Assembly: GCA_031264605.1 (NCBI GenBank)
Contig: JAISDQ010000182.1
Coordinates: forward strand, 1 to 16,604
Origin: Synergistaceae bacterium
GTDB lineage: Bacteria > Synergistota > Synergistia > Synergistales > Synergistaceae
Length of the DNA stretch: 16,604 nucleotides
Direction of reading: 5' to 3'
In this document: positions 863 through 16,604 of the stretch, in pieces
Numbering within the stretch: position 1 is the stretch's first letter
How the letters are laid out: every line of letters begins with the position of its first letter
Notes under the pieces: generated by a model
The model's database searches: none
What the model saw: the letters and a program-made list of their open reading frames with translations, nothing else
Told to the model about the DNA's origin: nothing
Position numbers and translations under genes: made by a program

Positions 863-895
863 TATACGAGCCGATTGCAATCAATTTATACGAGC
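863..895 (+). promoter_or_regulatory. Direct repeat TATACGAGC (x2, 24 bp apart) flanking palindrome ATTGCAAT, between the regulator stop and the first dehydrogenase start; candidate operator
   Basis: Seen directly: TATACGAGC at 863-871 and 887-895, ATTGCAAT at 875-882. A function as an operator is inference only. Confidence 0.25.
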
Positions 896-910
896 GAGGG
901 GATAAAAGCG

Positions 911-1972
911 ATGAAAGCGGTTATGATGTATAAACCAAAGGATCTGAGGATCGAGGATGTGCCGGTTCCGGCTCCGAAAGAAAATGAAGTGCTGGTAAAA
1001 GTCATGGGCTGCGGGGTATGCGGTTCCGACATACCAAGGATCAACAAATACGGCGCGTACTTCGCCCCCATCATACCGGGGCATGAATTCTCCGGAAAGA
1101 TTGTCGAAACCGGACATGCGGTCAAGGACTTCAAGGATGGCGACCGCGTTACCGTCCCGCCGCTCATTCCATGCTACAAATGCGAATGGTGCGGGAAAGG
1201 ACTGTACTCCCTCTGTTCCGGCTATGACTATTTCGGGTCGAGAAGGCACGGCGCGATGGCGGAGTACGTGGCCGTTCCCGAGGCCAACCTGCTGCGCTTG
1301 CAGGATAACGTAGGCTACATCGACGCCGCGACGACCGACCCCTGCGCCAATGCTCTGCACGGGCTCGCGCAGTCGAAGCTCCGGCCGGGCGAGGTTTTCC
1401 TCGCGTACGGCGCCGGCCCCATAGGGCTGTTTGCCTTGCAGGTTGCCCGCGTCCACGGCGCGTCAAAACTCATCACCGTGGACATCGGGGAGAAGAAGAC
1501 CGCGGTAGCGAAAAAGTATGGGGTGGATGTCGTCATTGACGCGTCCAAGGAGGATCCGGTCGAGGTCATAAAGAAGGAAACCGGAGGCAAGATGGCCGAC
1601 GTCGTCATCGATTTTACCGGAGCGCCCCCGGCCCAGAAAAAAGCCATAAACTGCGCCGGAAAGATGTCGAGGGTCGTCCTTCTCGGAATCTCCCACAGCG
1701 GACTCTCGCTGGACGAACACGAGGTCGACAATATCATGAGGGGACAGATATCAGTGATCGGCTCTTGGAATTCGTTCACCAAACCGTTCCCCGGGAACGA
1801 CTGGTTCGAGAGCCTGAAACTGTTCAGCGAGGGTAAAATATCGGCTGGGCATATGATAAGCCACAAGCTGCCACTGGATGAAGCGCCGGACATATTCAGG
1901 CAGATCGACGCCGGCGGCCTGTTTTTCAACAAGGTAATGTTCTTCCCGCACGGCGAGAACTTCGGCGAGTAG
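911..1972 (+). CDS. Zn-dependent alcohol/polyol dehydrogenase (MDR superfamily; sorbitol / galactitol-1-P / threonine dehydrogenase-like)
   Basis: Catalytic Zn ligands in GCGVCGSD and PGHEFSG. Structural Zn site CYKCEWCGKGLYSLC. Rossmann motif LAYGAGPIGL. ATG at 911 preceded by GAGGGG; the track's TTG at 875 is less likely. No N-terminal extension. Confidence 0.85.
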   Translation: MKAVMMYKPKDLRIEDVPVPAPKENEVLVKVMGCGVCGSDIPRINKYGAYFAPIIPGHEFSGKIVETGHAVKDFKDGDRVTVPPLIPCYKCEWCGKGLYSLCSGYDYFGSRRHGAMAEYVAVPEANLLRLQDNVGYIDAATTDPCANALHGLAQSKLRPGEVFLAYGAGPIGLFALQVARVHGASKLITVDIGEKKTAVAKKYGVDVVIDASKEDPVEVIKKETGGKMADVVIDFTGAPPAQKKAINCAGKMSRVVLLGISHSGLSLDEHEVDNIMRGQISVIGSWNSFTKPFPGNDWFESLKLFSEGKISAGHMISHKLPLDEAPDIFRQIDAGGLFFNKVMFFPHGENFGE

Positions 1973-2014: not shown

Positions 2015-3055
2015 ATGCTGGCTTGCGTATTCAAAAACGGAAAGTTTGAACTTGCCGAAAAACCTGTCCCGAAGGCCTCTTCCGACAGCGCGGTCGTAAA
2101 AATAAAGGCGACGTCCATATGTGGTACTGATTTCAGGACGTACGTCCACGGCAGCAAGAAGATACTCGAAGGCATAACCGTGGGGCACGAGCTTTGCGGC
2201 GAGATAGTCGAGATAGGAGAAAGCGTGGCCGGGTTTGCCAAAGGAGAAAGGGTTACGGTCGCGCCGGCGCTAGGCTGCGGGGAGTGCTACATGTGCAGAA
2301 AAGGGCACTCCAATATGTGCGACAATCTCAAGACTCTGGGGTATCATTTCGACGGTTCCTTCGCCGAGTACATGGAGATTCCGTCTCCGTTCTTCACGCG
2401 CGGACACGTCAATCATGTCGCGCCGTCGGTCGGCTCCGACCAGGCCGCGCTGGCGGAACCGGTGGCATGCGCCGTCAACGCGCAGGAGTTTTTGCGTATA
2501 GAAAAGGGCGACTACGTCGGAATTTTCGGTTCTGGATTCATCGGATGCAGTCACGCTGAACTTGCCGCGGCGCAGGGCGCTGAAAAGATCATAATGATAG
2601 AGCCCAACGCCGACAGGCTTGAGATTGCCAAACGGACGATCCCCGGAATATACGGGATCACCGGCGACGCCGACGTCGCGTCGTCCGTCAGGAAAATAAC
2701 GGATGGCAGGGGCGTTGACGTCGCCATCGTCGCTTGTTCCGTAGGCCCGGCTCAGACGGCCGCGATCGAGATCGCGGCAAAGCGGGGGAGAGTAAGCCTC
2801 TTCGGCGGACTTCCGGGCGAAGGCAGAGGATTTGTGGACAGCAATCTCATCCACTACAACGAACTCGGAATCTTCGGCGTACACGCTTCCACGCCGCAGC
2901 AAAACCGGCATGTCCTCGATTGGCTGGCCAGCGGCAAAATAGATACGGCGAAGTATATAGCGAAGAAATACCCTCTCGGAGATATCATGCAGGCTTTCGA
3001 CGACATAGCGAAAAAGGGCATCATGAAGGCCGTTATAGCCGACGAGGGCTATTAG
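2015..3055 (+). CDS. Zn-dependent alcohol/polyol dehydrogenase (MDR superfamily), second paralog
   Basis: Catalytic Zn ligands in SICGTD and VGHELCGE. Structural Zn site GCGECYMCRKGHSNMC. Rossmann motif IFGSGFIG. GAGGAG RBS before ATG 2015. Confidence 0.85.
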   Translation: MLACVFKNGKFELAEKPVPKASSDSAVVKIKATSICGTDFRTYVHGSKKILEGITVGHELCGEIVEIGESVAGFAKGERVTVAPALGCGECYMCRKGHSNMCDNLKTLGYHFDGSFAEYMEIPSPFFTRGHVNHVAPSVGSDQAALAEPVACAVNAQEFLRIEKGDYVGIFGSGFIGCSHAELAAAQGAEKIIMIEPNADRLEIAKRTIPGIYGITGDADVASSVRKITDGRGVDVAIVACSVGPAQTAAIEIAAKRGRVSLFGGLPGEGRGFVDSNLIHYNELGIFGVHASTPQQNRHVLDWLASGKIDTAKYIAKKYPLGDIMQAFDDIAKKGIMKAVIADEGY

Positions 3056-3106: not shown

Positions 3107-3748
3107 ATGGACGAGGGACGCGTCAAACTCGAGGTCGAGATCAGAAACGCTGTTTTAATGGCGATATATAAAAAAACCGGTGTGAGATATGTGCCGGTCG
3201 CTGTATCGAACAGGCACGCGCATCTCTCGCGCGCGGATATGGAAGTTTTGTTCGGAGCGGGCCGCAAACTGACGCCCATGAAATCTCTCTCGCAGCCGGG
3301 GCAGTACGCCGCGAAAGAGACTCTCTCGCTGACCGGCCCGAAAGGCAGAATAGACGGAATTCGAGTCCTCGGCCCCGAGAGGGGAAGTTCGCAGGTGGAG
3401 ATATCCGTCACGGATTCGTTCAGGCTTGGCATAACGCCGCTCATCCGCATGTCCGGCGATACGGCCGGCAGTCCAGGGGGACGTGTGGAGACGAAGCTCG
3501 GCTCGGTGGAGTTGAGCGAGGGCGTGATCGTCGCGGCAAGGCACATGCACATATCTTCCGCTCAGGCGCAAATCATGGGCCTCTCCGACGGCCAGGCGGT
3601 ATCTCTCAAGTCCGCCGGCGGACGCGGGGTCGTGTTCGACAATGTGGCCGTCAGGAGCGGAGAGGGTTTCGACCTGGAGGTTCACCTCGACACCGACGAG
3701 GCCAACGCGGCGCTTTTGAGGGACGGGGATCTCCTCGAAGTAGTGTGA
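3107..3748 (+). CDS. pduL: PduL/EutD-type phosphate acyltransferase (phosphotransacylase) with N-terminal amphipathic helix (putative encapsulation peptide)
   Basis: Both PduL repeat signatures are present: VPVAVSNRHAHLS and VIVAARHMHIS. Also QPGQYAAKETL, GPKGRIDGIRVLGPER and DTDEANAA. The first ~25 aa (VKLEVEIRNAVLMAIYKK) form an amphipathic helix before the catalytic domain starts. Confidence 0.85.
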   Translation: MDEGRVKLEVEIRNAVLMAIYKKTGVRYVPVAVSNRHAHLSRADMEVLFGAGRKLTPMKSLSQPGQYAAKETLSLTGPKGRIDGIRVLGPERGSSQVEISVTDSFRLGITPLIRMSGDTAGSPGGRVETKLGSVELSEGVIVAARHMHISSAQAQIMGLSDGQAVSLKSAGGRGVVFDNVAVRSGEGFDLEVHLDTDEANAALLRDGDLLEVV

Positions 3749-4494: not shown

Positions 4495-4794
4495 ATGCAA
4501 TTATGCAGAGTTAAAGGCACAGTGGTTAGCACCAACAAGAGCGAAAAGCTGAACGGTTTGAAACTGCTGATCGTGAAACCCATTGACATCGAGACGTTCG
4601 AGGAAAAGGGCGGTATAGTCGTGGCGATCGACGCGGTGGGCGCCGGCGAGGGGGAGGTGGTGATGTGCGTCGGGGGGAGTTCTTCGCGCCAGACGGGCAT
4701 CACTGACGGAAAACCGGTGGATCAGTCCATCGTGGCCATCATTGATTCCGTGAATATGAACGGCAAGCGTATTTTTGAAAAATTCAAGGTATAA
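4495..4794 (+). CDS. BMC vertex (pentamer) protein, EutN/PduN/CcmL family (BMC-P), paralog 1
   Basis: MQLCRVKGTVVSTNKSEKLNGLKLLIV...VAIDAVGAGEGEVVMCVGGSSSR is a classic EutN/CcmL fold sequence of ~99 aa. GGAGAAG RBS. Confidence 0.85.
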   Translation: MQLCRVKGTVVSTNKSEKLNGLKLLIVKPIDIETFEEKGGIVVAIDAVGAGEGEVVMCVGGSSSRQTGITDGKPVDQSIVAIIDSVNMNGKRIFEKFKV

Positions 4795-4824: not shown

Positions 4825-6261
4825 ATGGCGCTAAGCGAGGCACAGATCAGACAGCTTGCAAATGACGCGATTCTGGAGGTAAATGGCGCGAAACCATCGG
4901 CGCCTTCGGGAAAACCGGCGTATTCCGTGTTGCCGCCGGCATCTGGGCAGTGGCTGTGCGACGACGCAAACGAAGCGATCGCGAACGCGAAGCGGTCACA
5001 GATGATACTCGCCAGGATGCCGTTGGAGCAGCGGGGCAGGATAATATCGGCAATGAGAGAAGCCGCCGTCAGGCACGCGGAGACGCTTGCCGAACTCGCT
5101 CACAATGAGACCGGTTACGGGAGGGTAGATCACAAGGTTTTGAAGAACCGCCTGGCCGCTGCAAACACGCCTGGCATAGAGGATCTCCGCCCGATGGCGT
5201 ACAGCGGAGACAACGGACTCACCATAGTGGAGGGAGCGCCGTTCGGGGTGATAGGTTCCATAACTCCTTCGACCAATCCTACATCCACGGTCATAAACAA
5301 CTCGATAAGCATGATAGCGGCCGGCAACTCCGTGGTGTACAATCCGCATCCGTCCGCGAAGAATTCTTCCACTGAGGCGATGCGCGTCCTGAATGAAGCG
5401 GCAGCGGCTGCCGGAGGTCCGCCCGCCCTCATGACCACGGTAAAGGTTCCGACTCTGCAGAGCGGAGCTGCCATCATGAGCCACAGGGACGTCAAATTAC
5501 TTTCCATCACGGGCGGCGAGGCCGTCGTCAGCGTGGCGATGAAATCGGGCAAGAAAGTGATCGCCGCCGGGCCCGGAAATCCGCCGGTTATCGTGGACGA
5601 TACCGCCTTCATACCGCAGGCCGCTAAAGATATAGTCGACGGTGCGAGCTTCGACAACAACGTGCTCTGTGTGGCCGAGAAGGAGGTGTTCGCCTTCGAG
5701 GGTATCGCGGGAGAGCTGGTGAGCCAGATGGTACACTGCGGGGCCCACAAAGTTTCCGGAACGGACATCGATAAAATAGTCAATACGGTGTTGGAGAAGC
5801 GCGACGGCAAGTACGTCATAAACAGAAATTTCGTAGGGCGCAGCGCGACCCATATACTCGAACAGAGCGGAGTCCCTTACGTCGGGGAGCCGAGGCTGGT
5901 CATAGCCGAAGTGGACAAGTACCATCCGTTTGTGACGACTGAAATGCTGATGCCGGTGCTTCCGGTCGTCCGCGTCGGCAACATAGACGAAGCCATCGAG
6001 GAAGCGCTTCGCGCGGAACAGGGATATCAGCATTCGGCCATGATTCACTCCACGAACATACGGAATATGTCCGCCGCGGCCTACGCGCTGAACACGACGA
6101 TATTCGTGAAGAATGCGCCGTCATACAGCGGATTGGGCTTCGGGGGGGAGGGCTACGCCACTCTTACGATAGCGACTCCGACCGGGGAGGGCCTGACGAG
6201 CGCGAAGTCCTTTACCCGTGCCAGGCGATGCGTATTGAAGGGCGATTTCAGAATCGTCTGA
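4825..6261 (+). CDS. CoA-acylating aldehyde dehydrogenase (PduP/EutE family) with N-terminal encapsulation peptide and Pro/Ser-rich linker
   Basis: ITPSTNPTST motif. Catalytic Cys in FDNNVLCVAEKE. AAGPGNPP motif. ~478 aa. N-terminus SEAQIRQLANDAILEV (amphipathic) followed by NGAKPSAPSGKPAYSVLPPASGQ linker. Confidence 0.9.
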   Translation: MALSEAQIRQLANDAILEVNGAKPSAPSGKPAYSVLPPASGQWLCDDANEAIANAKRSQMILARMPLEQRGRIISAMREAAVRHAETLAELAHNETGYGRVDHKVLKNRLAAANTPGIEDLRPMAYSGDNGLTIVEGAPFGVIGSITPSTNPTSTVINNSISMIAAGNSVVYNPHPSAKNSSTEAMRVLNEAAAAAGGPPALMTTVKVPTLQSGAAIMSHRDVKLLSITGGEAVVSVAMKSGKKVIAAGPGNPPVIVDDTAFIPQAAKDIVDGASFDNNVLCVAEKEVFAFEGIAGELVSQMVHCGAHKVSGTDIDKIVNTVLEKRDGKYVINRNFVGRSATHILEQSGVPYVGEPRLVIAEVDKYHPFVTTEMLMPVLPVVRVGNIDEAIEEALRAEQGYQHSAMIHSTNIRNMSAAAYALNTTIFVKNAPSYSGLGFGGEGYATLTIATPTGEGLTSAKSFTRARRCVLKGDFRIV

Positions 6262-6268
6262 TTCGATC

Positions 6269-7576
6269 ATGAACGTAGCGGAGATGATTCGCAGCGCCGG
6301 AGTGGTGGGAGCCGGAGGCGCGGGATTCCCGACCCACGTCAAGGTAAACGCGGCTTCGCCCGAGTGCGTCATAGCCAACGGAGCGGAGTGCGAGCCTTTA
6401 TTGCGGGTGGATCAGCAAGTCATGGAGTTCCACGCCGGTTCTGTCATTGAAGGGTTGCGTCTGGTCATGAGCCATACTGACGCGCGTCGTGGCGTCATCG
6501 CCCTGAAGGATCACTACGAGGGCGCGATAACGGCTCTCCGGCGTGAGTTGTCCGGCTCGGACGACATAGGGCTTCACGTCATGAGAAGCTACTATCCCGC
6601 CGGGGACGAACAGCAGCTAGTGTACGATATCTGCGGGCGGGTCGTTCCGACAGGCGGGATTCCTCTTGATGTGGGGGCGGTGGTATTGAACGTCAGCACG
6701 CTTATGCACGTGGACGAAGGGAGCCGGAACATCCCGGTGACGGATAAATATGTGACGGTCGGCGGAGCGGTTCGCAGGCCTGTTACGGTCAAGGCCCCGA
6801 TAGGCGCGCCGATGGACGTTTTACTCGACGCCGCCGGAGGGACGACGGAGAAATGCGGTTACATAATCGGAGGGCCCTGTATGGGCAGAGTTGTCTCAGA
6901 CCTGAGCTTCCCGGTCGTGAAAACTACCGGAGGGATCATAGCGATACCGGAGGGACATCCGCTCCTTCAAAAAAAGAGCGATCGCATGAGCGTGCAGCTT
7001 ATCAAAGCCGTGTGCTGTCAGTGTTCCTTATGCACCCAGATGTGCCCCAGAAACGCGCTTGGGCTTCGCGTCGAACCTCATAAGGCTATGCGCAGCCTGG
7101 CCCAGGGAGTCGACCTGCTAAATGGGGCGAATGGCCTTTTCTCCTGCTGTGACTGCGGGATATGCACATACTACGCCTGCAATTTCGGCCTGAAACCGTC
7201 CAAGGTCATGGGACTGCTGAAGGCTGAAATGCAGAAGGCGGGAGTCAAGCCCAGGAAGGAAGTTTACTCGGCGGCCGACAGGGGGCTCGGCATGAAGAAA
7301 CTGCCCACCGCAAGGCTCATACACAGGTTGGGCATAGGGAAGTACGATGTGGCGGCTCCCATGGAGGAGCGTCCGATTTATACGGCCGTCGTCAGGATAC
7401 CCCTCAAGATGCACATAGGCGCCCCATCCAAGCCGGTTGCCTCGGTCGGACAGCGCGTAAACAGGGGCGATCTGATTGCCGATATACCGGAGGGGGCATT
7501 GGGCGCGAAAGTACACGCGAGCATCGACGGGACGGTTACCGAAGTGACCGGCGAATATATGGAGATAAAGGTGTAG
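6269..7576 (+). CDS. pduS: PduS-like Fe-S flavoprotein (RnfC/NADH-dehydrogenase 51 kDa-like domain plus two 4Fe-4S ferredoxin motifs)
   Basis: N-terminus MIRSAGVVGAGGAGFPTHVK matches the PduS/RnfC signature. Two cluster motifs: CCQCSLCTQMCP and CCDCGICTYYAC. The stop is only 4 nt upstream of the PduT-like gene. Confidence 0.8.
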   Translation: MNVAEMIRSAGVVGAGGAGFPTHVKVNAASPECVIANGAECEPLLRVDQQVMEFHAGSVIEGLRLVMSHTDARRGVIALKDHYEGAITALRRELSGSDDIGLHVMRSYYPAGDEQQLVYDICGRVVPTGGIPLDVGAVVLNVSTLMHVDEGSRNIPVTDKYVTVGGAVRRPVTVKAPIGAPMDVLLDAAGGTTEKCGYIIGGPCMGRVVSDLSFPVVKTTGGIIAIPEGHPLLQKKSDRMSVQLIKAVCCQCSLCTQMCPRNALGLRVEPHKAMRSLAQGVDLLNGANGLFSCCDCGICTYYACNFGLKPSKVMGLLKAEMQKAGVKPRKEVYSAADRGLGMKKLPTARLIHRLGIGKYDVAAPMEERPIYTAVVRIPLKMHIGAPSKPVASVGQRVNRGDLIADIPEGALGAKVHASIDGTVTEVTGEYMEIKV

Positions 7577-7579
7577 CTG

Positions 7580-8128
7580 ATGGGACAGGCGCTTGGAATG
7601 ATTGAACTCATAAGTGTTCCCGCTGGGATCGAGGCCGGCGACGCGATGCTGAAAGCCGCCGCCGTGGAATTGGTGACGGCGCAGGCGGCTTGCGCGGGCA
7701 AATACTTCGTCGCGGTCACCGGCGAGGTGGCCGCGGTGGAAGCGAGCGTCAAAGCCGGCAGGGAAGCCGCGTCCATGAAGCTGATCGACAGTCTCGTGAT
7801 ACCGAATATAGACGCGCAGGTACCCCTCGCCATCAACATGTGCAGCGATCCGGGGGAAATAGAGACGCTCGGGGCGATAGAGACGTTCTCTCTGTGCGCC
7901 GCGATAGTGGCGGCGGACTGCGCCGTGAAAGCCGCGCGGGTACGGCTCATAGAGATCAGGCTGGGCAGAGGGTTGGGCGGCAAGTCGTTCATAACTCTCA
8001 CCGGCGATGTGGCGGCGGTAAAAGCCGCGGTGAAAGCCGCCTCGGAAGTCGAAGAAGTCAGAGGCCTGATGGCGGAGAGCGTGGTAATACCTTCGCCGCA
8101 CCCCGATATGGTCAAGGCGGTATTTTGA
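7580..8128 (+). CDS. pduT: PduT-like tandem-domain shell protein (BMC-T) with conserved pore cysteine (Cys38) for a 4Fe-4S cluster
   Basis: 182 aa with two BMC domains. Aligns along its length to Salmonella PduT: MGQALGMIELISVPAGIEAGDAMLKAA, IDSLVIPNIDAQVPLAI and GAIETFSLCAAIVAADCAVKA...VIPSPHPDM. Cys at residue 38 (TGC 7691-7693) is at the position of the PduT cluster ligand. Confidence 0.8.
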   Translation: MGQALGMIELISVPAGIEAGDAMLKAAAVELVTAQAACAGKYFVAVTGEVAAVEASVKAGREAASMKLIDSLVIPNIDAQVPLAINMCSDPGEIETLGAIETFSLCAAIVAADCAVKAARVRLIEIRLGRGLGGKSFITLTGDVAAVKAAVKAASEVEEVRGLMAESVVIPSPHPDMVKAVF

Positions 8129-8169: not shown

Positions 8170-8481
8170 ATGTCCAAAGAAGCACTGGGAATGGTTGAGA
8201 CAAGAGGGCTGATAGGCGCGATCGAGGCGGCGGACGCTATGGTAAAGGCCGCCAACGTTTCCCTGATCGGCAAACAGCAGATCGGAAGCGGGCTGGTCAC
8301 TGTCATGGTGAGAGGTGACGTAGGGGCCGTGAAAGCCGCTGTCGACGCCGGAGCGGCGGCCGCCAAGAGGGTAGGCGAACTCTACGGCGTGCATGTCATC
8401 CCCAGCCCCCATGGGGACGTGGAAGGCATACTGCCGACGATTAACGCCGCTCCCCCGGCGCCGGCGAAGTCGAAAGCATAA
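8170..8481 (+). CDS. BMC hexamer shell protein (BMC-H, PduA/EutM-like), copy 1, with Ala/Pro-rich C-terminal tail
   Basis: [26 protein letters not shown]...[16 protein letters not shown] is the canonical Pfam00936 domain. Tail [24 protein letters not shown]. Confidence 0.9.
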
Positions 8482-8488
8482 ACGAGCC

Positions 8489-8755
8489 GTGTACGCGGGC
8501 GAGGTCGTCGGGTGCGTAGTAGCTACGGTTAAGGAACCCAACCTGGAGGGTATACCGCTCCTGGTGGTGAGGGTAATCGAAAACGGCAAGCCGGCCAATC
8601 TGGTGGTTGCCGCGGATTCGACCCGTCAGGCCGGCAGCGGCGACCATGTGTACATGATCGGCTCCAAGGAGGCCGCTCGCATGTTCCGTAAGAAGCTGAC
8701 TCCGGTGGATGTGGCGATTGTGGGTTTTATTGACGAATACAGGGAGGAACTTTGA
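8489..8755 (+). CDS. BMC vertex protein (EutN/PduN family, BMC-P), paralog 2; probable GTG start
   Basis: VYAGEVVGCVVATVKEPNLEGIPLLVVRVIENGKP...AADSTRQAGSGDHVYMIGSKEAARMF. The same frame stays open upstream to 8393, but that stretch overlaps the BMC-H tail in another frame and is Arg-rich junk. GTG at 8489 gives the canonical MxxAxVVGxVV start. Confidence 0.7.
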   Translation: MYAGEVVGCVVATVKEPNLEGIPLLVVRVIENGKPANLVVAADSTRQAGSGDHVYMIGSKEAARMFRKKLTPVDVAIVGFIDEYREEL

Positions 8756-8794: not shown

Positions 8795-9073
8795 ATGGAG
8801 AAATTGGCGCTTGGTATGGTAGAGACGAGGGGTTTGATAGGCGCGATCGAAGCGGCGGACGCCATGGTTAAGGCCGCTAACGTGACTCTGATTGGCAAGG
8901 AACAGATCGGCAGCGGTCTCGTGACCGCTATGGTGAGAGGCGACGTGGGCGCGGTAAAGGCGGCCGTCGACGCCGGAGCGGCGGCGGCGAAAAGAGTCGG
9001 CGAACTCTATGGCGTACACGTTATCCCAAGCCCGCACAACGACGTCGAGGGTATTCTGCCCGGCAAAAAATAG
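8795..9073 (+). CDS. BMC hexamer shell protein (BMC-H), copy 2 (near-identical protein to copy 1, diverged at synonymous sites)
   Basis: [97 protein letters not shown]. Confidence 0.9.
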
Positions 9074-9082
9074 GGGACGCCG

Positions 9083-9370
9083 GTGAGAATCGCCGCAGTC
9101 GTAGGAAACGTAGTTTCCACGATAAAGGACGAGTCATACCGCGGATACAAACTTATGATCATCGAATACCTGAACGAGGACGGAAAACCGTCCGGGGCGC
9201 GTCAGATAGCGTTTGACGCCGGACAGGCCGGCATAGGCGACGTAGTGCTCGTCAACGTGGACGGGGGAGCGGCGAACATGATGCTCGATAAAGACGTCAT
9301 CGCCGATCTCACAATTTGCGGCGTCCTGGACAGCTATACCTATGACGGGAAGACGAAGGTATTCTTCTGA
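9083..9370 (+). CDS. BMC vertex protein (EutN/PduN family, BMC-P), paralog 3; GTG start
   Basis: MRIAAVVGNVVSTIKDESYRGYKLMII...AFDAGQAGIGDVVLVNVDGGAANMM matches the EutN fold sequence. Confidence 0.8.
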   Translation: MRIAAVVGNVVSTIKDESYRGYKLMIIEYLNEDGKPSGARQIAFDAGQAGIGDVVLVNVDGGAANMMLDKDVIADLTICGVLDSYTYDGKTKVFF

Positions 9371-9383
9371 GGTGGTGGTTGAA

Positions 9384-10133
9384 ATGGATATTGAAAAGAT
9401 CGTGAGCGATGTGCTCAAGGAGGTTCAATCCGGGGGAACTGTTCACGGAAAACCCTCGCCGGGTTCGGTTCAGGCGTGGGAAGTTCCGTCGAAGCTGGAG
9501 CACTCGCTGCTGAACCCGGATGTCGGCCTCGGCAAGATATTGGCGGAGTGCGCCGTCGCGCGGCGGTATTGCGTAGCGGCGGTCTGTGTCGCGCCCTATT
9601 ATGTGTCCGCCGCCGCCGACGTCCTGAGAGGAAGCGGCGTAAAGGTCTGCGCCGCGATAGGTTTCCCGCACGGTTGCATGTCGGCGGCGTCAAAACTGGC
9701 CGAAGCGCGCGAGTGCGTCAAAAACGGCGCGGACGAAATCGACGTCGCGATGAACATTCTTGCGGTAAAATCGGGCAGGATCGCCGACGCAAGGGACGAT
9801 TTCGAACAGATAGCGGCCGCCTCGCGCGGAAAGACTACGCTCAAGGCGGTTTTCGAGCACAGCGTGTACTCCGACGAGGAGAAGCGCGCCGTGCTGGAAA
9901 TCGTGAAGACCTGCGGAGCCGAGTTCGTGAAGATACAAAACGTCCTGAGCGGCAAGGGCGCCGAAACCGAGGACATAAAATATGTGAGGAATATCCTGGG
10001 CCGTAACGTGAAAGTCAAGATCGACGGCGGCGTAAAGACGCTGGCGAAGGCGATGGAACTGTTGTCCGCGGGAGCGGATCGCATAGGACTCACAGCGACC
10101 GCGGCGATCGCGAAAGAGGCGGAGTGTAAATAA
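9384..10133 (+). CDS. Divergent DeoC-family class I aldolase (deoxyribose-phosphate aldolase-like) with N-terminal extension (putative encapsulation peptide)
   Basis: TIM-barrel DeoC architecture: AAVCVAPYYV, AAIGFPHG, EFVKIQNV (Schiff-base Lys retained) and KVKIDGGVKT (second Lys retained). The consensus TSTGF and phosphate-loop GTSSG are replaced by IQNVL and GLTAT. N-terminus MDIEKIVSDVLKEVQS plus a Gly/Pro/Ser linker. ATG 9384 with GAGGTGG RBS; the track's start at 9342 overlaps the upstream gene. Confidence 0.7.
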   Translation: MDIEKIVSDVLKEVQSGGTVHGKPSPGSVQAWEVPSKLEHSLLNPDVGLGKILAECAVARRYCVAAVCVAPYYVSAAADVLRGSGVKVCAAIGFPHGCMSAASKLAEARECVKNGADEIDVAMNILAVKSGRIADARDDFEQIAAASRGKTTLKAVFEHSVYSDEEKRAVLEIVKTCGAEFVKIQNVLSGKGAETEDIKYVRNILGRNVKVKIDGGVKTLAKAMELLSAGADRIGLTATAAIAKEAECK

Positions 10134-10164: not shown

Positions 10165-11001
10165 ATGAGCGCGATAGATATCAATGAAATTATCAGGCAG
10201 GTGACTGCCGAGATATGCGCCAACTACGGCGCGGCTTCTTCCGCGCCGGCTGATGAGTACAGTCCGGCGTCGCTGGCGAAGTACATCGACCATACGCTGC
10301 TTAAGCCCGACGCCAGCCTGAACGATATACGCAAGGTCTGTGACGAAGCAAAGAAGCATAACTTCGCTAGCGTGTGCGTGAACACCGGCTACATAAAATT
10401 CGTAGCCGACGCTCTGGAGGGCAGCGGAGTGGCGCCATGCTGCGTCGTCGGTTTCCCGCTGGGAGCCATGATGCCCGAGGCCAAAGCGGCCGAGGCGCTG
10501 TGCGCCGTCAACAGCGGCGCTAAAGAGGTCGACATGGTCATAAACGTCGGAGCGGTGAAATCATCCGACTGGAAATTGGTCCACAGCGACATAGAGGGCG
10601 TCGTGACGGCGGCTCGCGGAAGAGCCATAGTGAAGGTGATAATAGAGACATGCCTCCTCACCGACGAGGAAAAGGTGAAGGCATGCGCGATCAGCAAACT
10701 CGCGGGGGCTCATTTCGTGAAAACGTCCACCGGATTTTCGACCGGCGGAGCGACGGTGGAAGACGTGCGTCTGATGCGCCGGACAATAGGTCCCGATATG
10801 GGACTCAAGGCATCCGGAGGAGTGAGGACGTACGAGGACGCGGTCAACATGCTGAAGGCCGGAGCCACCAGGCTGGGAACCAGTTCAGGAACGAAGATCG
10901 TATCGGGCGACGGCGCGGCGGAGCACAAATGCGTGAACTGCGGAGCGTGCAAAGTCGTGTGCCCGAGCGGCAGGGCCACGGTCATAAAAGGCCTGTACTG
11001 A
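10165..11001 (+). CDS. deoC: Deoxyribose-phosphate aldolase (DeoC) with N-terminal encapsulation-peptide-like extension and C-terminal CxxCxxCxxxCP 4Fe-4S ferredoxin-type motif
   Basis: Canonical DERA motifs: YIDHTLLKPDA, VCVNTGY, VVGFPLGA, HFVKTSTGFSTGGAT, GLKASGGVRT and RLGTSSG. N-terminus MSAIDINEIIRQVTAEI plus an Ala/Ser/Pro linker. C-terminal tail KCVNCGACKVVCP (nt 10930-10965). Confidence 0.85.
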   Translation: MSAIDINEIIRQVTAEICANYGAASSAPADEYSPASLAKYIDHTLLKPDASLNDIRKVCDEAKKHNFASVCVNTGYIKFVADALEGSGVAPCCVVGFPLGAMMPEAKAAEALCAVNSGAKEVDMVINVGAVKSSDWKLVHSDIEGVVTAARGRAIVKVIIETCLLTDEEKVKACAISKLAGAHFVKTSTGFSTGGATVEDVRLMRRTIGPDMGLKASGGVRTYEDAVNMLKAGATRLGTSSGTKIVSGDGAAEHKCVNCGACKVVCPSGRATVIKGLY

Positions 11002-11023: not shown

Positions 11024-11779
11024 ATGAGAAAACCGATTATCGCCGGTAACTGGAAGATGAACATGACGCCGTCACAGACGGTGAAGCTGATCGAGGAGAT
11101 CAAGCCTCTCGTCGCGGAGGCGAGATGTGAGATCGTCGTCTGTCCGACCCATACGTGCCTCTTTGCGGCTAAAGAGGCCCTTAAAGGGACGGACAGAATA
11201 TCCCTCGGCGCTCAGGACATGTTTTACGAGGAGAGGGGCGCTTTCACCGGCGAGGTCTCCTGCGAATCGCTGCTCGAACTCGGCGTCAGATACGTGATCA
11301 TCGGACATTCGGAGCGCCGCCAATACTTCGCCGAGTCCGACGAGACGGTCAGCAAAAAAGTCACGAAGGCCCTGGAAAAACGCCTGATTCCGATTGTCTG
11401 CGTGGGCGAGTCGCTCACGCAGAAACAGCGGGGAGTTACGAACGAAACCGTGGGGTTGCAGACGCGTCTCGCGCTTTTCGGCGTCGGCGCCGGAAACGCG
11501 GAGGACGTCGTGATAGCGTACGAACCGATCTGGGCAATCGGAACAGGCATGACGGCCACCAGCGCGGAGGCGAACGGCACGATACGCCGTATAAGAGGCG
11601 TCCTCGCCGAGATGTACAATCCGGAAACCTCGCGGAAAGTCCGCATTCTTTACGGGGGCAGCATGAACGCCGGAAACGCAGGGGAATTGCTTTCAACGAG
11701 CGACATAGACGGAGGACTGATAGGCGGCGCGAGCCTGAAGAGCGGCGATTTCGCGCAAATCGTGGGCAACTTGAGCTGA
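11024..11779 (+). CDS. tpiA: Triosephosphate isomerase
   Basis: IIAGNWKMN, catalytic His in IIGHSERR, AYEPIWAIGTG (catalytic Glu) and YGGSMN. No N-terminal extension. Confidence 0.9.
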   Translation: MRKPIIAGNWKMNMTPSQTVKLIEEIKPLVAEARCEIVVCPTHTCLFAAKEALKGTDRISLGAQDMFYEERGAFTGEVSCESLLELGVRYVIIGHSERRQYFAESDETVSKKVTKALEKRLIPIVCVGESLTQKQRGVTNETVGLQTRLALFGVGAGNAEDVVIAYEPIWAIGTGMTATSAEANGTIRRIRGVLAEMYNPETSRKVRILYGGSMNAGNAGELLSTSDIDGGLIGGASLKSGDFAQIVGNLS

Positions 11780-11928: not shown

Positions 11929-13125
11929 CTAATAGACAACCTCTATTTTCTTGCCGCACTTGGATGATTCGGCAAGGGTCTCCAGAATGACCGCTGCTCT
12001 GTAGCCGTCCTCGAACGTAGCGCATAACGGGCCAACTTCTTTGTCGTTTGCCACACAGTCGAGAAAATGAGCGATCAGATTGATGTGACCGTGTTCCCAG
12101 CCGCAATTATGGCCTGCGGGCCACCATATCTTCATGAACGGATGATTGGGCAGCGTGCAGGAAATTCTTGTAAAGCCGGCAATTTCGGGAACAGGCGCTT
12201 CTCTGAGCTGCACATTGAGATAAGTAGGATCCTCGAGGCTCCATGTAATAGTTCCTTTTGTTCCGTAGATCTCCCAATAAAGATGGTTATACCTGCCGGA
12301 TGCGACTGACATGTTTTCAATGGTTCCGGTAGCGCCGTTGTTAAAGTCAATGAGAGCCCGAATGCTGTCATCATAAGGCACATCGACCATAGCGCCGTTT
12401 TTGCGGGCGGAGGGTCTCTGTTTCGGGATAGAACGCATATCGCCCGTTATCGAAGCAACTTCGCCAACGAGGAATCGAGCCTGGTCAATAAGGTGCGTTC
12501 CCAACCCCTGGGAGTTGCCTGTCATGTTTTGATACCAGACGTTTTCAACAGGGAGATCGAGAGGAAGGGCATATTCCTGATGATATCTTCCGTAAAAGTG
12601 AAGTATGTCGCCGACCGCCCCTTTGTTGATAAGCTCGTACGCAAGCCTGACAGCGCCTTGAAAACGATAGTTAAAACACAGAGCGTTCTTGACGTTTGCC
12701 TTATTGACCGCGTCCAGCATTTTTTTTGACGCTTCTCTGCCCAAGGCCATCGGTTTTTCGCATATGATATGTTTGCCGGCTTCGGCAGCGTCAATACAAG
12801 GCTGCATGTGAAGACTGTCCACACAGACATTGTCAAATACAGAAACGTCAGGATCCGCGATAAGATCTTTCCAGCCGCCATAATGGTTCTTGAAGCCGTA
12901 CCTGTCAGCGGCAGCCTTGGCATTTTCCACGGTGGAAGCGCTAATTGCGATCAGTTCCGGCACATAGTTTGTTTCAAACATATAGCTGATCGTCTTGTAC
13001 GCATTGGAATGAGCCTTGCCCATGAAGCCCCTGCCAAAAAGACCGATTCCGATTTTTTTTCTGGGCTGTGAGAAATCGCCGACACTGTAACCTATACCTA
13101 TGTTTTTTACTTCGCTCATAATCAC
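11929..13125 (-). CDS. Gfo/Idh/MocA-family NAD(P)-dependent oxidoreductase
   Basis: N-terminal Rossmann motif IGIGLFGRGFMGKAHSNAY and the family hallmark EKPMAL. ~398 aa. AGGTG RBS before ATG. Confidence 0.8.
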   Translation of the reverse strand: MIMSEVKNIGIGYSVGDFSQPRKKIGIGLFGRGFMGKAHSNAYKTISYMFETNYVPELIAISASTVENAKAAADRYGFKNHYGGWKDLIADPDVSVFDNVCVDSLHMQPCIDAAEAGKHIICEKPMALGREASKKMLDAVNKANVKNALCFNYRFQGAVRLAYELINKGAVGDILHFYGRYHQEYALPLDLPVENVWYQNMTGNSQGLGTHLIDQARFLVGEVASITGDMRSIPKQRPSARKNGAMVDVPYDDSIRALIDFNNGATGTIENMSVASGRYNHLYWEIYGTKGTITWSLEDPTYLNVQLREAPVPEIAGFTRISCTLPNHPFMKIWWPAGHNCGWEHGHINLIAHFLDCVANDKEVGPLCATFEDGYRAAVILETLAESSKCGKKIEVVY

Positions 13126-13248
13126 CGCACCTTTTTTCTTTGCGTCTTCCTACCCTCTTTTAATACTATTTCCCATAGTACACCCTTATCCGCCGCTCCG
13201 GCTATTTCACGGAATATTTCACAAAGACCTTACCTGGCATGTCTCGCC

Positions 13249-14025
13249 TCACTCATCCCTCCCGGCGTATATGACGGTTGCGTAGCTTGTGCCGGATTCT
13301 ACGCGGCGGCCCAGAATATCCGACGAGTCCGTGTGTTCCATGACGACGCCCTTTACCGCGCCGAGTTCGCTGAACAGACGGAGGACAAGCGACGCGGCTC
13401 TCCGCGCGTCGATATCCAAGCGGCCGGTTTGCATCGGTTCCAGGGCCGTCAGGACTTCGAGAGTCAGTTCGTCCTCCTGGCGCATCGCTTCAGGGGTTTT
13501 GTAATGCGACAGATCCATGCTCAAAATGATCATGTCGCTTTCCAGCGCCGCTTCGAGCATGTATTTTTTCAGCATCAGGAGAGCGATATCGGGTATGTTC
13601 GGTTTCAGCACCATAGGGACGACCGTCGCGTTGGGGAAATACCGCGCGATGAACGGAATGTGGATGGTGATTCCGTGTTCTTCCGCGAAAAGACGCGGAT
13701 TTGACGTGACCACGCTCAAGCCGGAGAAACCGCTTTTCGCGTCGTCGTCGGCTTTAACTGTCCATCCCGCCGTTTGCCAATCATCGCCGCATACCTCGGC
13801 GTAATTTCTTGCCCGTTTGAAATGGTCGGGCGACAGCAGCCACACGCGTCTGACCTTATCCGAGGAAACGCGTTCATAAAACCGCGATATCATGTCCAGC
13901 GCGAGACCGTGGTGCGGCACGATTCCCCCGAGTATCCGCGCTCCGGCGTCCGCGTTCGCTGACGCCGAAAGCGCAAAAAACATGCCGCAGAAAACGGCGA
14001 CAAACAGGCGTTTCTTTGCCGTCAT
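13249..14025 (-). CDS. MEMO1 / AmmeMemoRadiSam-system protein B family protein with N-terminal signal peptide (exported)
   Basis: GGIVPHHGLALD and LSMDLSHY resemble the MEMO1 His/Asp-containing motifs. N-terminus MTAKKRLFVAVFCGMFFALSASANA is a typical Sec signal peptide with an AxA cleavage site. Its start codon overlaps the stop of the upstream gene (ATGA). Confidence 0.65.
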   Translation of the reverse strand: MTAKKRLFVAVFCGMFFALSASANADAGARILGGIVPHHGLALDMISRFYERVSSDKVRRVWLLSPDHFKRARNYAEVCGDDWQTAGWTVKADDDAKSGFSGLSVVTSNPRLFAEEHGITIHIPFIARYFPNATVVPMVLKPNIPDIALLMLKKYMLEAALESDMIILSMDLSHYKTPEAMRQEDELTLEVLTALEPMQTGRLDIDARRAASLVLRLFSELGAVKGVVMEHTDSSDILGRRVESGTSYATVIYAGRDE

Positions 14026-16604
14026 CGCGTGTTTTCCTTAAATTCTCTATACCAGTCGGGGCAGAGCCGTTCCAATTCATTTTCGCGGCCCGGGTCGTAT
14101 ACTATGGCCTTCCATTCCTCGTCCGTCATACGCTCGGACACGGAGCGCTCGAACTCGTAATACGAAAAAACGTAGCCTTTTGTGACGCGGGCCCCGCCGG
14201 ATTTGTCGTTCGCGAATACGTAAATCGCCCGCGGTGTCCCGGAAGCCGCTTCCAGAACCGTCATATCCCAACCGTTCGTCGCCGTATCCGCCACGCACGC
14301 CATCTTCCTCAGCTCTCCGTCGTCCGTCAGCATGCCGTATCCGGGAAGAAGAAGGAATCTGTCGAAAGCGCGCGCTGTCTCCTTGATCGAAGCGTATTCG
14401 CCTGGGGATAGCGTCTCTTTGGTAACTTCCTTCCTCGCGATATCCCTCATAGATTCGAGCATCGCCGAAAATTTTCCGAGTCTGTCGGAATATTTCGTCT
14501 CGCCGTCGCCATCGTTGTCCTCCACGCCGAAGCCTTCTATGAAAGCCCTCAAATTGTCCGTCGCGCCGAGCATCGCTGAGAAGAACTGCGGATCGGGCTC
14601 CACGTAGCCTCTCGGTCGCGGAGGCTCGAATCCGCCGGCATACCAGTTGTCGCCGCCCTCGCCCATCTCCGCCATGCTCTGCTCGGCGTACAAAATGGTG
14701 TCGTGTTTTAGTTCGGCCCATGAAGCCAGATTCGTCGCCAGTTTCTTCCATCGCCACCCCTCGGTTCCGTAAAAAAACTGCTCCGATCCCGAGTCTTTGA
14801 AACCGGCCAGAAACGTTTCGAGCCAGCTAGCGTAGACGGTGTTCTCCCCGGCGAGATATCCGGCGGCTTCGTCTTTCAGTTCCGCAAGGCTGGCTTCGTA
14901 GTTTTCAATGTCGTAATCGTTTTTCGAGAGAGCGTCCGCGGCGGACGACCCGAATACCGCCATGACGTCCGTTCCCTTCGGCATGTTCCGCGGGTTTTCA
15001 TCGGTTCCGACGCTGGGCGACGTAAGCCGGTTCATTATGTAAGCGTCATAGGTGAAGCGTTTGGGCGAGATTCTGAAAACCGCGCTTCTGGATTCGAAAT
15101 CAGCCCCTGCCGCGTCAATCCCCGCGACGCTCCGAATCTTCGGCCCCGAAACGTTTTCCGCGATATCCTCCGCGAGACGGGCAATCACGGCTTCGTCGCC
15201 GAGGAGCGCCCAGGCATCCTGTCCGCCGTCTCCCAAGCGTTTCCGCACGATCCCGCGATAAATTTTCGGGTCTCCGGCGTTGGGAACGCCTATCAGCAAA
15301 GTCATCGCGTCCTCGAACGTCTCCCAGTTTCCCCTCTGCGCGTCCATCGCGAGAGCGATTGCCGCGGCGGCCGCGACGTTGTGCGCGATCGGTTTTCCGT
15401 CCATGCCGAACATCGGCAGTTCGGCGAGCCCGACGTAACTCATCGCGCGAAAGTAGCGTTCGTACTCGGGGGAGATCGTGTAGTGTCCGCGCGGTTTGAA
15501 CAGCGTGTAGTCGATTTTCTGTCCGGTTATACCCGAAACTTCCATTTCGGAGGCCGCCATGATTTTTTCGGTTTCCGCGGCCGCTCGCGGCGATAGTTTT
15601 TCGCCCGCCGGATTTTCCGACAACAGCGCTTGTGCGACCGACAACATATCATGGGCTGTGTCGAAAGACCGCCGCGCGGCGTCCCCGCCGTCCGAGCGCT
15701 TTCGCGCCGCATCCACCAGGCCGATCGCCCCGTTCAAATTCTCCGCGAGCTGGGGCGCGAGGTATGTGCGCTCGAATTTTTGCAGCATCTGGTCGAATAT
15801 GAGATGGAACGAATGGAGAAAAATATCCGCCGTGATGAAATCCGCCTCGTACTCTCCCGTAAGCGAGTAAAGATCGGCCATATCGTCGACACGGACGCCG
15901 TATTCATCAGGCAAAAGAGCCTTGTCGTCTATGAGAAACCCACGTTTTTCGAGCGAATCGGCGAATCGTTCCGGCAGATTTTCGATATTTTCCGCGCCGC
16001 CCGGCTCGGCGCGCAATCTTCGCGACGAGGGTATGAGGGCGCGGTCGGCTTTCGAGTTGTCCGGTTCGTACGAGTCCAGCACGATGAAATCTTCCCCGCG
16101 TCCCCACGCGAAACGGCGGCCTACGCCGGATTCTCCGTCAACCGTGCCGAAGGACATGAGCACATATCCGTCGCGTTTCCCGTACGAGGGAACGATTTCT
16201 CCTTTAAGCAGCGAAAAATCACGCCCCGGCAGATCGCTTTTGCCGCCGCCGGGCATCAGTGAAAGTTCCGGCCCGTCGCGGAGGGCCATATAGAGCGCGC
16301 CGCGGGTTGGTTCGCAATCCGGAAACGGCTCTACGCCGTCCTCGGGAATATAGCCCAGCACGCTGCCGTCATCCGGAGATATGAGCGCGAACCAGCCGCA
16401 TTCGGGACGCAACGTCAGTTTGTTGCCGTAGACGACGACGCCTTCTATATCGTCGCCGTATTCGATCCCGCCGTCGCCGGTTTTGGCGTATTCGCCGCCC
16501 GGCGAGTTCATGATCGGCAGTATTTCCGCGACGACGGTATATTCTCCCTCGCCCGCCGCCTCGCGGGAAGCCGCGCGCGCCTCTCCGTCAAACGCCAGAA
16601 GCAG
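14022..16604 (-). CDS. Large conserved hypothetical protein (>860 aa; possibly DUF3160-like), N-terminus beyond window
   Basis: Continuous minus-strand frame with no stop from 16604 down to 14022, so the ATG at 16511 in the track is probably internal. Codon usage matches a genuine CDS. Acidic and Gly-rich, with no catalytic motif recognisable by eye. Translationally coupled to the MEMO-like gene. Confidence 0.5.
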   Translation of the reverse strand: MLLAFDGEARAASREAAGEGEYTVVAEILPIMNSPGGEYAKTGDGGIEYGDDIEGVVVYGNKLTLRPECGWFALISPDDGSVLGYIPEDGVEPFPDCEPTRGALYMALRDGPELSLMPGGGKSDLPGRDFSLLKGEIVPSYGKRDGYVLMSFGTVDGESGVGRRFAWGRGEDFIVLDSYEPDNSKADRALIPSSRRLRAEPGGAENIENLPERFADSLEKRGFLIDDKALLPDEYGVRVDDMADLYSLTGEYEADFITADIFLHSFHLIFDQMLQKFERTYLAPQLAENLNGAIGLVDAARKRSDGGDAARRSFDTAHDMLSVAQALLSENPAGEKLSPRAAAETEKIMAASEMEVSGITGQKIDYTLFKPRGHYTISPEYERYFRAMSYVGLAELPMFGMDGKPIAHNVAAAAAIALAMDAQRGNWETFEDAMTLLIGVPNAGDPKIYRGIVRKRLGDGGQDAWALLGDEAVIARLAEDIAENVSGPKIRSVAGIDAAGADFESRSAVFRISPKRFTYDAYIMNRLTSPSVGTDENPRNMPKGTDVMAVFGSSAADALSKNDYDIENYEASLAELKDEAAGYLAGENTVYASWLETFLAGFKDSGSEQFFYGTEGWRWKKLATNLASWAELKHDTILYAEQSMAEMGEGGDNWYAGGFEPPRPRGYVEPDPQFFSAMLGATDNLRAFIEGFGVEDNDGDGETKYSDRLGKFSAMLESMRDIARKEVTKETLSPGEYASIKETARAFDRFLLLPGYGMLTDDGELRKMACVADTATNGWDMTVLEAASGTPRAIYVFANDKSGGARVTKGYVFSYYEFERSVSERMTDEEWKAIVYDPGRENELERLCPDWYREFKENTR

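Follow-up and report, generated by a model that had tools for sequence, protein, structure and literature searches.

Sugar-phosphate-utilising (SPU) bacterial microcompartments (BMCs) have been reported to rank with the most prevalent types of microcompartment, but their characterisation has scarcely begun. The deoxyribose-phosphate aldolase of these organelles (DERA, the DeoC protein) carries an N-terminal encapsulation peptide (EP; PMC11585597), and this targeting peptide was previously thought to be all that distinguishes SPU DERA from cytosolic DERA. Cleavage of deoxyribose-5-phosphate has been demonstrated only for one SPU6 DERA, from the Chloroflexi (PMC11585597). Here, we describe a DeoC with a further distinguishing feature, a C-terminal tail with four cysteines in a ferredoxin-type C-x2-C-x2-C-x3-C-P motif. 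It is encoded at positions 10165-11001 of a 16,604-nucleotide stretch of Synergistaceae DNA (contig JAISDQ010000182.1; this whole stretch is referred to as the window), in what its gene content identifies as an SPU-type microcompartment locus. Both the enzyme and the organelle are known; the predicted metal-binding insert is undescribed and strongly conserved.

Two other described systems are close to this protein. A review on DERA (PMC8403123) states that, in the Escherichia coli enzyme, the G-x-S-S loop holds the substrate phosphate through Ser238, and that the disordered C-terminal tail of this enzyme can close, the terminal Tyr259 then lying inside the active site (citing Schulte 2018). 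Designed semidoxins are half-ferredoxins of about 30 amino acids which homodimerise, bind two [4Fe-4S] clusters and have low-potential redox activity (JACS Au 2025, PMC12648291); they are markedly O2-sensitive in vivo. The natural protodoxin PD1 binds [4Fe-4S] both as a monomer (one cluster) and as a dimer (two clusters), while natural semidoxin candidates are rare (55), free-standing, confined to anaerobes and without known function (PMC12648291).

No description of an iron-sulfur (Fe-S)-type tail on DERA or DeoC was found in 8 million full texts. The words 'iron' and 'ferredoxin' are absent from the main text of the 2024 SPU paper, where 'cysteine' refers to ribose-5-phosphate isomerase (RPI) and mass spectrometry only (PMC11585597). 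The only name met in databases is 'deoxyribose-phosphate aldolase', although InterPro or PROSITE may carry an automatically assigned '4Fe-4S ferredoxin-type domain' flag. An earlier note on this DNA, which knew of no description of such a fusion, is borne out by the searchable literature.

Conservation and distribution of the tail

The tailed DeoC is identical to NCBI protein MDR1133884.1, from a Synergistaceae metagenome-assembled genome (MAG). Residues 37-246 match both TIGR00126 (278.6 bits against a cutoff of 117.3), which establishes DeoC membership, and PF01791 (63 bits against a cutoff of 23.8). The predicted catalytic triad consists of D123 (EVDMV), K186 (FVKTSTGF) and K215 (GLKASGG); these residues are invariant in 41 homologues, and were matched to E. 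coli D102 (proton relay), K167 (Schiff base) and K201 (proton relay), respectively, via motifs and not by structure-based alignment. In the G238-T-S240-S241 loop, the counterpart of the E. coli G236/S238 phosphate-binding loop, G238 and S240 are invariant in the same 41 homologues. The description of the protein in the earlier note as a canonical DeoC is correct for the barrel but not for the N-terminus, where an EP-like helix is predicted by AlphaFold2 (AF2) at residues 6-22. This N-terminal extension is missing in 30 ordinary DeoC proteins, whose alignments begin at about query residue 31-37.

The translated C-terminal end of the protein reads ...GDGAAEHKCVNCGACKVVCPSGRATVIKGLY, followed by the stop codon. 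The motif lies exactly where the earlier note placed it in the DeoC reading frame, with C256 beginning at nucleotide 10930 and P267 ending at nucleotide 10965. The strict CxxCxxCxxxCP form given there holds for the window protein and for most relatives, but not for the family as a whole; the spacing between the third and fourth Cys, which is 3 in these proteins, ranges from 2 (CKTCP) to 6 (CKNGGTSCP).

A search of 5.8 billion clustered proteins was used to collect the best 120 homologues (70-97% identity), and 118 of them contain the C-x2-C-x2-C-x3-C tail. Among the best homologues listed, most are 273-282 amino acids long and end in Tyr. One homologue cluster is present on at least 1000 contigs, which are up to 1.35 Mb long. 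The four-Cys tail was also found at 43 distinct species-level loci in a scan limited to one genome per species. Its hosts belong to the Synergistaceae, Christensenellaceae, Oscillospiraceae, Family XIII and other Clostridia. No named host falls outside Synergistota and Clostridia, and most are gut and digester MAGs. Cultured carriers include Christensenella hongkongensis HKU16 (WP_082103602.1) and Ruminococcaceae Marseille-P2935, and the tail is also found in one human-gut reference MAG.

Seven tail residues (C256, C259, G260, C262, C266, P267 and G269) are 100% conserved in the 43 species; the six of these that belong to the motif (C256 to P267) are also 100% conserved in the 41 database homologues. 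Conservation of the residues between the invariant positions is 18-55%, compared with a mean of 81% for the barrel in the same species, and the linker that precedes the motif is variable in length and 25-65% conserved. K275 is 83% conserved and the terminal Tyr is found in 42 of the 43 species. Both TGC and TGT codons are used at each of the four Cys positions. Since the ligand residues are invariant while their neighbours vary and the codon changes are synonymous, the tail can be considered a genuine, selected module. The exact motif appeared in 3 of 300,000 composition-preserving shuffles of the tailed DeoC; the probability of a chance origin is negligible.

The earlier note had raised the possibilities of a frameshift or assembly error and of a motif absent from orthologues. 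Both are ruled out by the occurrence of the tail in so many homologues and species; the use of both Cys codons also speaks against an artefact. A separate possibility, that a small ferredoxin gene nearby was recently joined to DeoC, was rejected, as no open reading frame (ORF) with a C-x2-C-x2-C-x(2-6)-CP motif lies within 1.5 kb of any tail-less DeoC relative.

Most tailed sequences fall into one large clade of EP-bearing enzymes in a rough neighbour-joining tree built from the barrel region only. When all libraries were searched (phmmer) with the C-terminal 79 residues, the tail was found in only 6 of the best 150 representatives at 50% identity; the tailed family is a compact clade, and the tail is not a general feature of DERA or of SPU loci. 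The co-occurrence with BMC shell genes that the earlier note proposed to look for is found in the sampled clade. Here, every tailed copy with enough flanking sequence lies either in a shell-gene locus or in a satellite operon. In one type of satellite operon, a SorC regulator, an FGGY sugar kinase, the tailed DeoC and a single BMC-H are found beside spoIIIA genes; in the other (L015), a regulator and a kinase precede the tailed DeoC and two Zn-dependent alcohol dehydrogenases (Zn-ADHs). These operons are located away from the main shell locus (L025, 7264-11134; L049, 7237-11130; L018; and L015, 2264-7889).

Eight EP-bearing DeoC proteins (L034, L037-L041, L045 and L058) are tail-less and have no shell gene within 10 kb; the terminal Tyr is also missing in six of them. 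One of the eight (L039) shares a MAG with a tailed locus (L030). Another (L037) adjoins ORFs whose N-termini resemble cysteine synthase, NifS and NifU by eye, a resemblance unconfirmed by any search.

Position of the tail and its likeness to ferredoxins

In the AF2 model, the chain exits the barrel after strand beta8 and a short helix (E236-239, H242-247), at the phosphate-binding loop. Ordinary DeoC proteins at the fetched loci stop 8-15 residues past the same short helix, and many of them end in ...G-x-x-Y (e.g. SGVKIVQGLTSDSDY and IMKGEEASGDY). The loop Ser and the terminal Tyr are approximately 16-21 residues apart in ordinary DeoC proteins and 38 residues apart in the tailed protein. Because both the equivalent of the phosphate-binding loop and the last-residue Tyr are kept, the four-Cys knot is best described, on the alignment, as an insertion within the flexible C-terminal arm of DERA itself and not as an appended domain. 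Given this exit of the chain at the phosphate-binding loop, the knot is expected to lie near the mouth of the active site; this placement is derived from TIM-barrel topology, not from coordinates.

The closest solved DERAs in the PDB align only to query residues from about 36 to 251, and no PDB DERA reaches past query residue 252 or so; the tail is consequently without a structural template. The AF2 run was made for an apo monomer with a 41-sequence alignment. The barrel is predicted with confidence, whereas the predicted local distance difference test (pLDDT) is 42-51 for residues 251-278 (below 50 at linker residues 251-254), and the tail is neither folded nor docked on the barrel. Low pLDDT in an apo monomer is as expected for a fold that depends on a cofactor or on a partner.

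The last 32 residues have sub-threshold matches to nine Fer4 families in Pfam. Across the 41 family members, matches at E<0.01 are found in 38 for Fer4_9, in 37 for Fer4_7 and in 26 for PF00037; zinc-binding families are absent from the profile matches of these 41 proteins. In phmmer searches of the PDB, the tail aligns to single repeats of the FwdF polyferredoxin, NuoI/TYKY, RnfC and clostridial ferredoxins (for example, HKCVNCGACKVVCPSGRATVIK against FwdF). The likeness extends past the cysteines: Cys1 is followed by a hydrophobic residue, Cys2 by an invariant Gly and Cys4 by an invariant Pro, and the flanks have an acidic/Lys pair before Cys1 and a G-x-A-x-V strand after the CP. Judged from this homology, the tail is one half of a 2x[4Fe-4S] ferredoxin repeat and is semidoxin-like. 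In ferredoxins, Cys1-3 ligate one cluster and the Cys of the Cys-Pro ligates the other. Because the fourth Cys serves the other cluster in these proteins, it would be expected that either two tails pair or the motif binds its cluster non-canonically.

Possible roles of the tail

The tail may form a cluster-dependent lid or brace on the catalytic arm of the encapsulated aldolase; this is the interpretation we prefer, although we give it somewhat less than an even chance. We infer the following mechanism, which runs from cluster binding through the geometry of the lid to a regulatory consequence. A module of about 30 residues would have been inserted after the phosphate-binding loop and last short helix (residues ~238-247) and before Tyr278. 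Its four invariant Cys would bind [4Fe-4S], either in cis or shared between two tails, in which case the two-cluster ferredoxin fold would be rebuilt. The cluster would play no part in aldol chemistry; it would order an arm that is disordered without it, so that a lid or brace forms at the active-site mouth. Without an intact cluster, the arm, with K275 and Tyr278, would then not close productively, and acetaldehyde would be released inside the shell only when conditions are anoxic and Fe-S-competent. The same conditions would be required by the chain of Fe-S-dependent NAD+ recycling (from PduS/MNdh to BMC-T), and the lid would be a fail-safe alongside this chain. MNdh and BMC-T(SE) have been proposed to be an Fe-S electron conduit for NAD+ recycling, on which cofactor recycling in these organelles would depend (PMC11626177).

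The earlier note had suggested, among other roles, a redox or O2 sensor gating activity, and the insertion of the motif in a mobile arm with the terminal Tyr kept favours this idea. In its most specific form, the half-ferredoxin would be a redox- or O2-gated lid over the active site, holding either a three-Cys cluster in which one iron site is open or a two-cluster clasp between subunits, and acetaldehyde would be made only when the lumen is anoxic and Fe-S-based NAD+ recycling is intact. This specific form is doubtful.

A number of observations weigh against a lid or brace. Firstly, the tail can be lost. In the Synergistaceae MAG Po218_bin34 (L004, ~10755-10840), an in-frame stop precedes the motif, with Arg in place of Cys1 (the frame reads ...SGDGGA, stop, RKRANCGVCKAVCPSGRAAIINGVY, stop); the same truncated 253-amino acid product is found independently in another assembly (P0006). 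This is natural loss or decay of the tail. Other SPU DERAs are also without it: those of L079 (Anaerolineales), P0155/L084 and P0162/L085 have long N-terminal extensions, normal ...G-x-Y ends and no Cys motif. L079, L084 and L085 are SPU6-like or partial loci, and no PduS is seen in them.

Secondly, the terminal Tyr is found in 26 of 50 tail-less representatives of at least 200 amino acids and is not universal among DERAs; a catalytic role is documented for this residue in E. coli alone. There is no convincing docking patch of barrel residues conserved only in tailed sequences (D60 and Y76 are weak candidates), and the tail is not docked on the barrel by AF2.

Thirdly, the likeness to ferredoxins is incomplete. 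The Fer4 scores of the window protein are below the gathering thresholds (PF00037, 18.1 against 21.1; Fer4_7, 21.0 against 27; Fer4_8, 21.3 against 27). With a single motif per protein, only a half domain is found and not the complete (beta-alpha-beta)x2 two-cluster fold. Binding of [4Fe-4S] in cis would be non-canonical, and the variable spacing of Cys3 and Cys4 differs from that of classical ferredoxins.

The main rival explanation is a cluster-mediated clasp. The tails of one DERA dimer, or of different dimers, would pair into an intermolecular 2x[4Fe-4S] fold which organises or condenses the aldolase core; K-x-x-Y would then be part of the fold or of the interface and would not be catalytic. 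A half domain in which Cys1-3 and Cys4 serve different clusters is well suited to such pairing, and designed semidoxins do homodimerise with two clusters (PMC12648291). The E. coli and SPU6 DERAs are dimeric (PMC11585597). The tail also seems to be an autonomous module, since neither co-adapted barrel residues nor docking in the AF2 monomer are found, and it is limited to shell-linked copies. However, the N-terminal EP already serves as a handle for aggregation and encapsulation, the strict last-residue Tyr is left unexplained by a ferredoxin fold, and the tail has been lost in one lineage. A clasp is somewhat unlikely, but is to be taken seriously.

Instead of an Fe-S cluster, the four Cys could hold a structural zinc in a Zn(Cys)4 knuckle, or their two CxxC pairs could act as a thiol/disulfide switch; either would stabilise or regulate a long tail. 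The Cys3-Cys4 spacing of 2-6 resembles that of loop-type structural Zn sites; C-x2-C-x2-C-x7-C loops of the structural-Zn type can be read off the translations of both Zn-ADHs in the window; and the Fer4 scores are below threshold. These points are countered by the ferredoxin hallmarks of the tail (Gly after Cys2, Pro after Cys4, the hydrophobic residue after Cys1 and G-x-A-x-V after the CP), and by the finding of Fer4 matches in 38 of 41 members and of zinc-binding families in none. In addition, the hosts are strict anaerobes, in which the use of Fe-S is common. A zinc or thiol site is quite unlikely.

A role in docking or electron relay is very unlikely. The tail cluster would exchange electrons with the lumenal PduS/MNdh or with the cluster of the shell pore, or would tether DERA beside them; the earlier note had suggested a tether to PduT or PduS. 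Genes for PduS and for a Cys-bearing BMC-T are indeed present both in the window and in the majority of related loci, and MNdh/BMC-T(SE) is the proposed Fe-S conduit for NAD+ recycling (PMC11626177). The suggestion is weakened by two Oscillospiraceae MAGs (L020 and L023), which are otherwise complete and syntenic but have no PduS-PduT between the aldehyde dehydrogenase and the first BMC-H (gap regions at 7746-7808 and 7714-7771, respectively); their DeoC tail is intact, in a shortened C-x2-C-x2-C-x2-CP form. DERA has no redox substrate which could be an electron donor or acceptor. The published model docks MNdh directly on BMC-T(SE), with cofactors 7-9 Å apart, and does not need an extra relay (PMC11626177). 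Satellite operons pair the tailed DeoC with BMC-H only.

That the tail is an artefact or a neutral relic, i.e. a frameshift-fused ferredoxin fragment without function, is compatible with the stop codon before the tail in one lineage but is exceedingly improbable, being effectively refuted by conservation across 118 of 120 homologues and 43 species (cultured isolates included), by invariant ligand residues with synonymous codon changes, and by the lack of a ferredoxin-like ORF near tail-less relatives.

If the tail is a cluster-dependent lid or brace, a conserved Fe-S-type module would represent an unrecognised control point at the step which makes a toxic aldehyde. DERA is also an industrial biocatalyst, for which a metal-controlled lid would provide a new engineering handle.

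The microcompartment locus and comparison with known systems

The genes of the window are listed in the table below. Since the shell genes (BMC-H, BMC-T and a BMC-P triplet) cluster with a CoA-acylating aldehyde dehydrogenase (AldDH) and with a DeoC bearing an EP-like extension, the locus is assigned, on gene content, to the SPU type. The gene order of the window recurs in more than 30 fetched loci.

Table. Features of the 16,604-nucleotide window, with the parts of the tailed DeoC listed under its gene
Feature	Position	Strand	Basis and remarks
SorC/B. subtilis-DeoR-type sugar-binding regulator, 5' end cut by window edge	29..862	+	PF04198
Zn-dependent polyol/alcohol dehydrogenase 1	875..1972	+	Pfam ADH_N, ADH_zinc_N; NCBIfam
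Zn-dependent polyol/alcohol dehydrogenase 2	2015..3055	+	NCBIfam
PduL-type phosphotransacylase	3107..3748	+	PF06130, 231.6 bits
Conserved protein of unknown family, 235 amino acids	3745..4452	+	No Pfam/NCBIfam match; syntenic in most related loci, 29-64% identity
BMC-P (EutN/CcmL) pentamer protein 1	4495..4794	+	PF03319
AldDH, CoA-acylating, metabolosome core	4825..6261	+	PF00171; syntenic in related loci
PduS/MNdh-type flavoprotein, two 4Fe-4S motifs	6269..7576	+	Complex1_51K, SLBB, Fer4_17, RnfC_N; motif positions
PduT-like tandem-BMC shell protein (BMC-T), pore Cys in CAGK	7580..8128	+	Two PF00936 domains
BMC-H 1	8170..8481	+	PF00936
BMC-P 2, listed ORF 120 amino acids	8393..8755	+	PF03319; EutN domain residues 36-114
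BMC-H 2	8795..9073	+	PF00936
BMC-P 3	9083..9370	+	PF03319
Upstream DeoC paralogue (DeoC1)	9342..10133	+	TIGR00126, 165 bits; likely true start Met of MDIEKIV, nucleotide 9384
Tailed DeoC/DERA gene	10165..11001	+	ORF translation, 278 amino acids + stop; TIGR00126, 278.6 bits
N-terminal extension, residues 1-36	10165..10272	+	Amphipathic EP-like helix 6-22 (nucleotides 10180-10230) and low-complexity linker
DeoC TIM-barrel, residues 37-246	10273..10902	+	Hidden Markov model match; pLDDT >90
Linker, residues 247-255, Gly/Ala-rich	10903..10929	+	Between last short helix and first Cys; variable
CVNCGACKVVCP, C-x2-C-x2-C-x3-C-P motif, residues C256-P267	10930..10965	+	C256, C259, G260, C262, C266, P267
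Distal arm SGRATVIKGLY, residues 268-278	10966..10998	+	Ferredoxin-like G-x-A-x-V strand, K275, C-terminal Tyr278
Triosephosphate isomerase (TPI), directly 3' of tailed DeoC	11024..11779	+	PF00121, 298.9 bits
Divergent downstream block	11929..16511	-	Gfo/Idh/MocA oxidoreductase, AmmeMemoRadiSam system protein B homologue, 829-amino acid DUF3160 protein

The best NCBIfam match of the regulator is NF053881 DeoR (profile positions 52-310 of 311), at 178.8 bits and far under the cutoff of 420. The best matches of the two Zn-ADHs are galactitol-1-phosphate 5-dehydrogenase, scyllo-inosose 3-dehydrogenase and threonine dehydrogenase; the pair occupies the slot of an Fe-dependent alcohol dehydrogenase in loci of gut Clostridia. 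Elsewhere, Zn-ADHs accompany the regulator, the FGGY kinase and the tailed DeoC, which hints at a feeder pathway for polyols or deoxy-sugars. The C-terminus of the 235-amino acid protein bears a '...IITPAAKDKAGELGI' motif.

BMC-T of the window has CAGK as its pore motif (residues ~36-41), which is shared by 26 of 29 related loci, the other three having CPGK; CP(G/S)K is described as universal beside MNdh (PMC11626177). The ORF of BMC-P 2 overlaps the preceding BMC-H by about 90 nucleotides, and its true start is probably just past the BMC-H stop; the orthologue in L005 is found at 8330-8596 of that locus. In the downstream block, the best match of the Gfo/Idh/MocA protein is levoglucosan dehydrogenase, below cutoff, and the AmmeMemoRadiSam B homologue has an N-terminus which resembles a signal peptide.

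DeoC1 has an EP-like N-terminus but neither a Cys tail nor a terminal Tyr. The D/K/K triad is kept in 33 of 33 orthologues, the phosphate-side motif FVKTSTGF is changed to FVKIQ, and the position of S240 is occupied by T. DeoC1 may be an aldolase that acts on another substrate; alternatively, it may be a scaffold partner, comparable to RPI in SPU6.

The composition of the window matches that of published SPU loci (Axen 2014, PMC4207490; Sutter 2021, PMC8217296; Dwyer, Sutter & Kerfeld 2024, PMC11585597). Among the subtypes, it appears nearest to those with phosphotransacylase, TPI and PduS and without BMC-T(dp) (SPU1/SPU4). The likeness of the regulator to B. subtilis DeoR, although below cutoff, fits deoxyribose-5-phosphate as the substrate. 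There are two differences. Firstly, only an N-terminal extension of DERA is described in the SPU literature, whereas the window DERA also has a C-terminal tail. Secondly, RPI is absent here (there is no PF02502 match among the scanned window genes) and a second, divergent DeoC is present instead. In published SPU data, SPU5 and 11 of 29 SPU4 loci are without RPI; consequently, its absence does not exclude an SPU assignment.

With E. coli DERA (Schulte 2018, cited in PMC8403123), the tailed protein shares a flexible arm after the phosphate-binding G-x-S-S loop, and 42 of 43 tailed sequences end in Tyr. The E. coli arm covers 21 residues from Ser238 to Tyr259 and has no metal site; the arm of the tailed DeoC covers 38 residues from S240 to Y278, with the four-Cys knot inside.

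The structural Zn(Cys)4 loop of medium-chain ADHs is C-x2-C-x2-C-x7-C and lies inside the ADH_N fold; the last spacing of the tail is x3 (x2-x6 in relatives) and the tail lies outside any ADH fold. The glutamine phosphoribosyl pyrophosphate amidotransferase of B. subtilis (PurF) and FNR are examples of non-redox regulatory or structural Fe-S clusters which are O2-labile sensors. The proposed likeness is a [4Fe-4S] cluster in a non-redox protein, the integrity of which reports O2 or Fe-S status; folds and ligand motifs differ. We know of no Fe-S precedent in a class I aldolase or in a microcompartment signature enzyme. If the proposal is correct, the tailed DERA would be the first Fe-S-regulated class I aldolase and the first redox-gated signature enzyme of a microcompartment, and would give a role to an extant semidoxin.

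With the 2x[4Fe-4S] ferredoxin domain (PF00037, PF12838; FwdF, NuoI/TYKY, RnfC), the tail shares the exact C-x2-C-x2-C-x3-C-P motif, the Gly after Cys2 and similar flanks, with D/E-x-K before Cys1 and CP-x-x-A-x-V at its end. It differs from this domain in having one motif, sub-threshold scores and, in relatives, a variable Cys3-Cys4 spacing. With semidoxins, it shares a length of about 30 residues (32), a single CxxCxxCxxxCP motif and anaerobic hosts. Semidoxins are free-standing, whereas the tail is part of the DeoC reading frame in each of the 43 species and ends in a conserved K-x-x-Y. Cluster binding is demonstrated for semidoxins and predicted from sequence for the tail, which is carried by dozens of species. 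The tail would be a widespread natural half-ferredoxin with a plausible function, which bears on work on the origin of ferredoxins.

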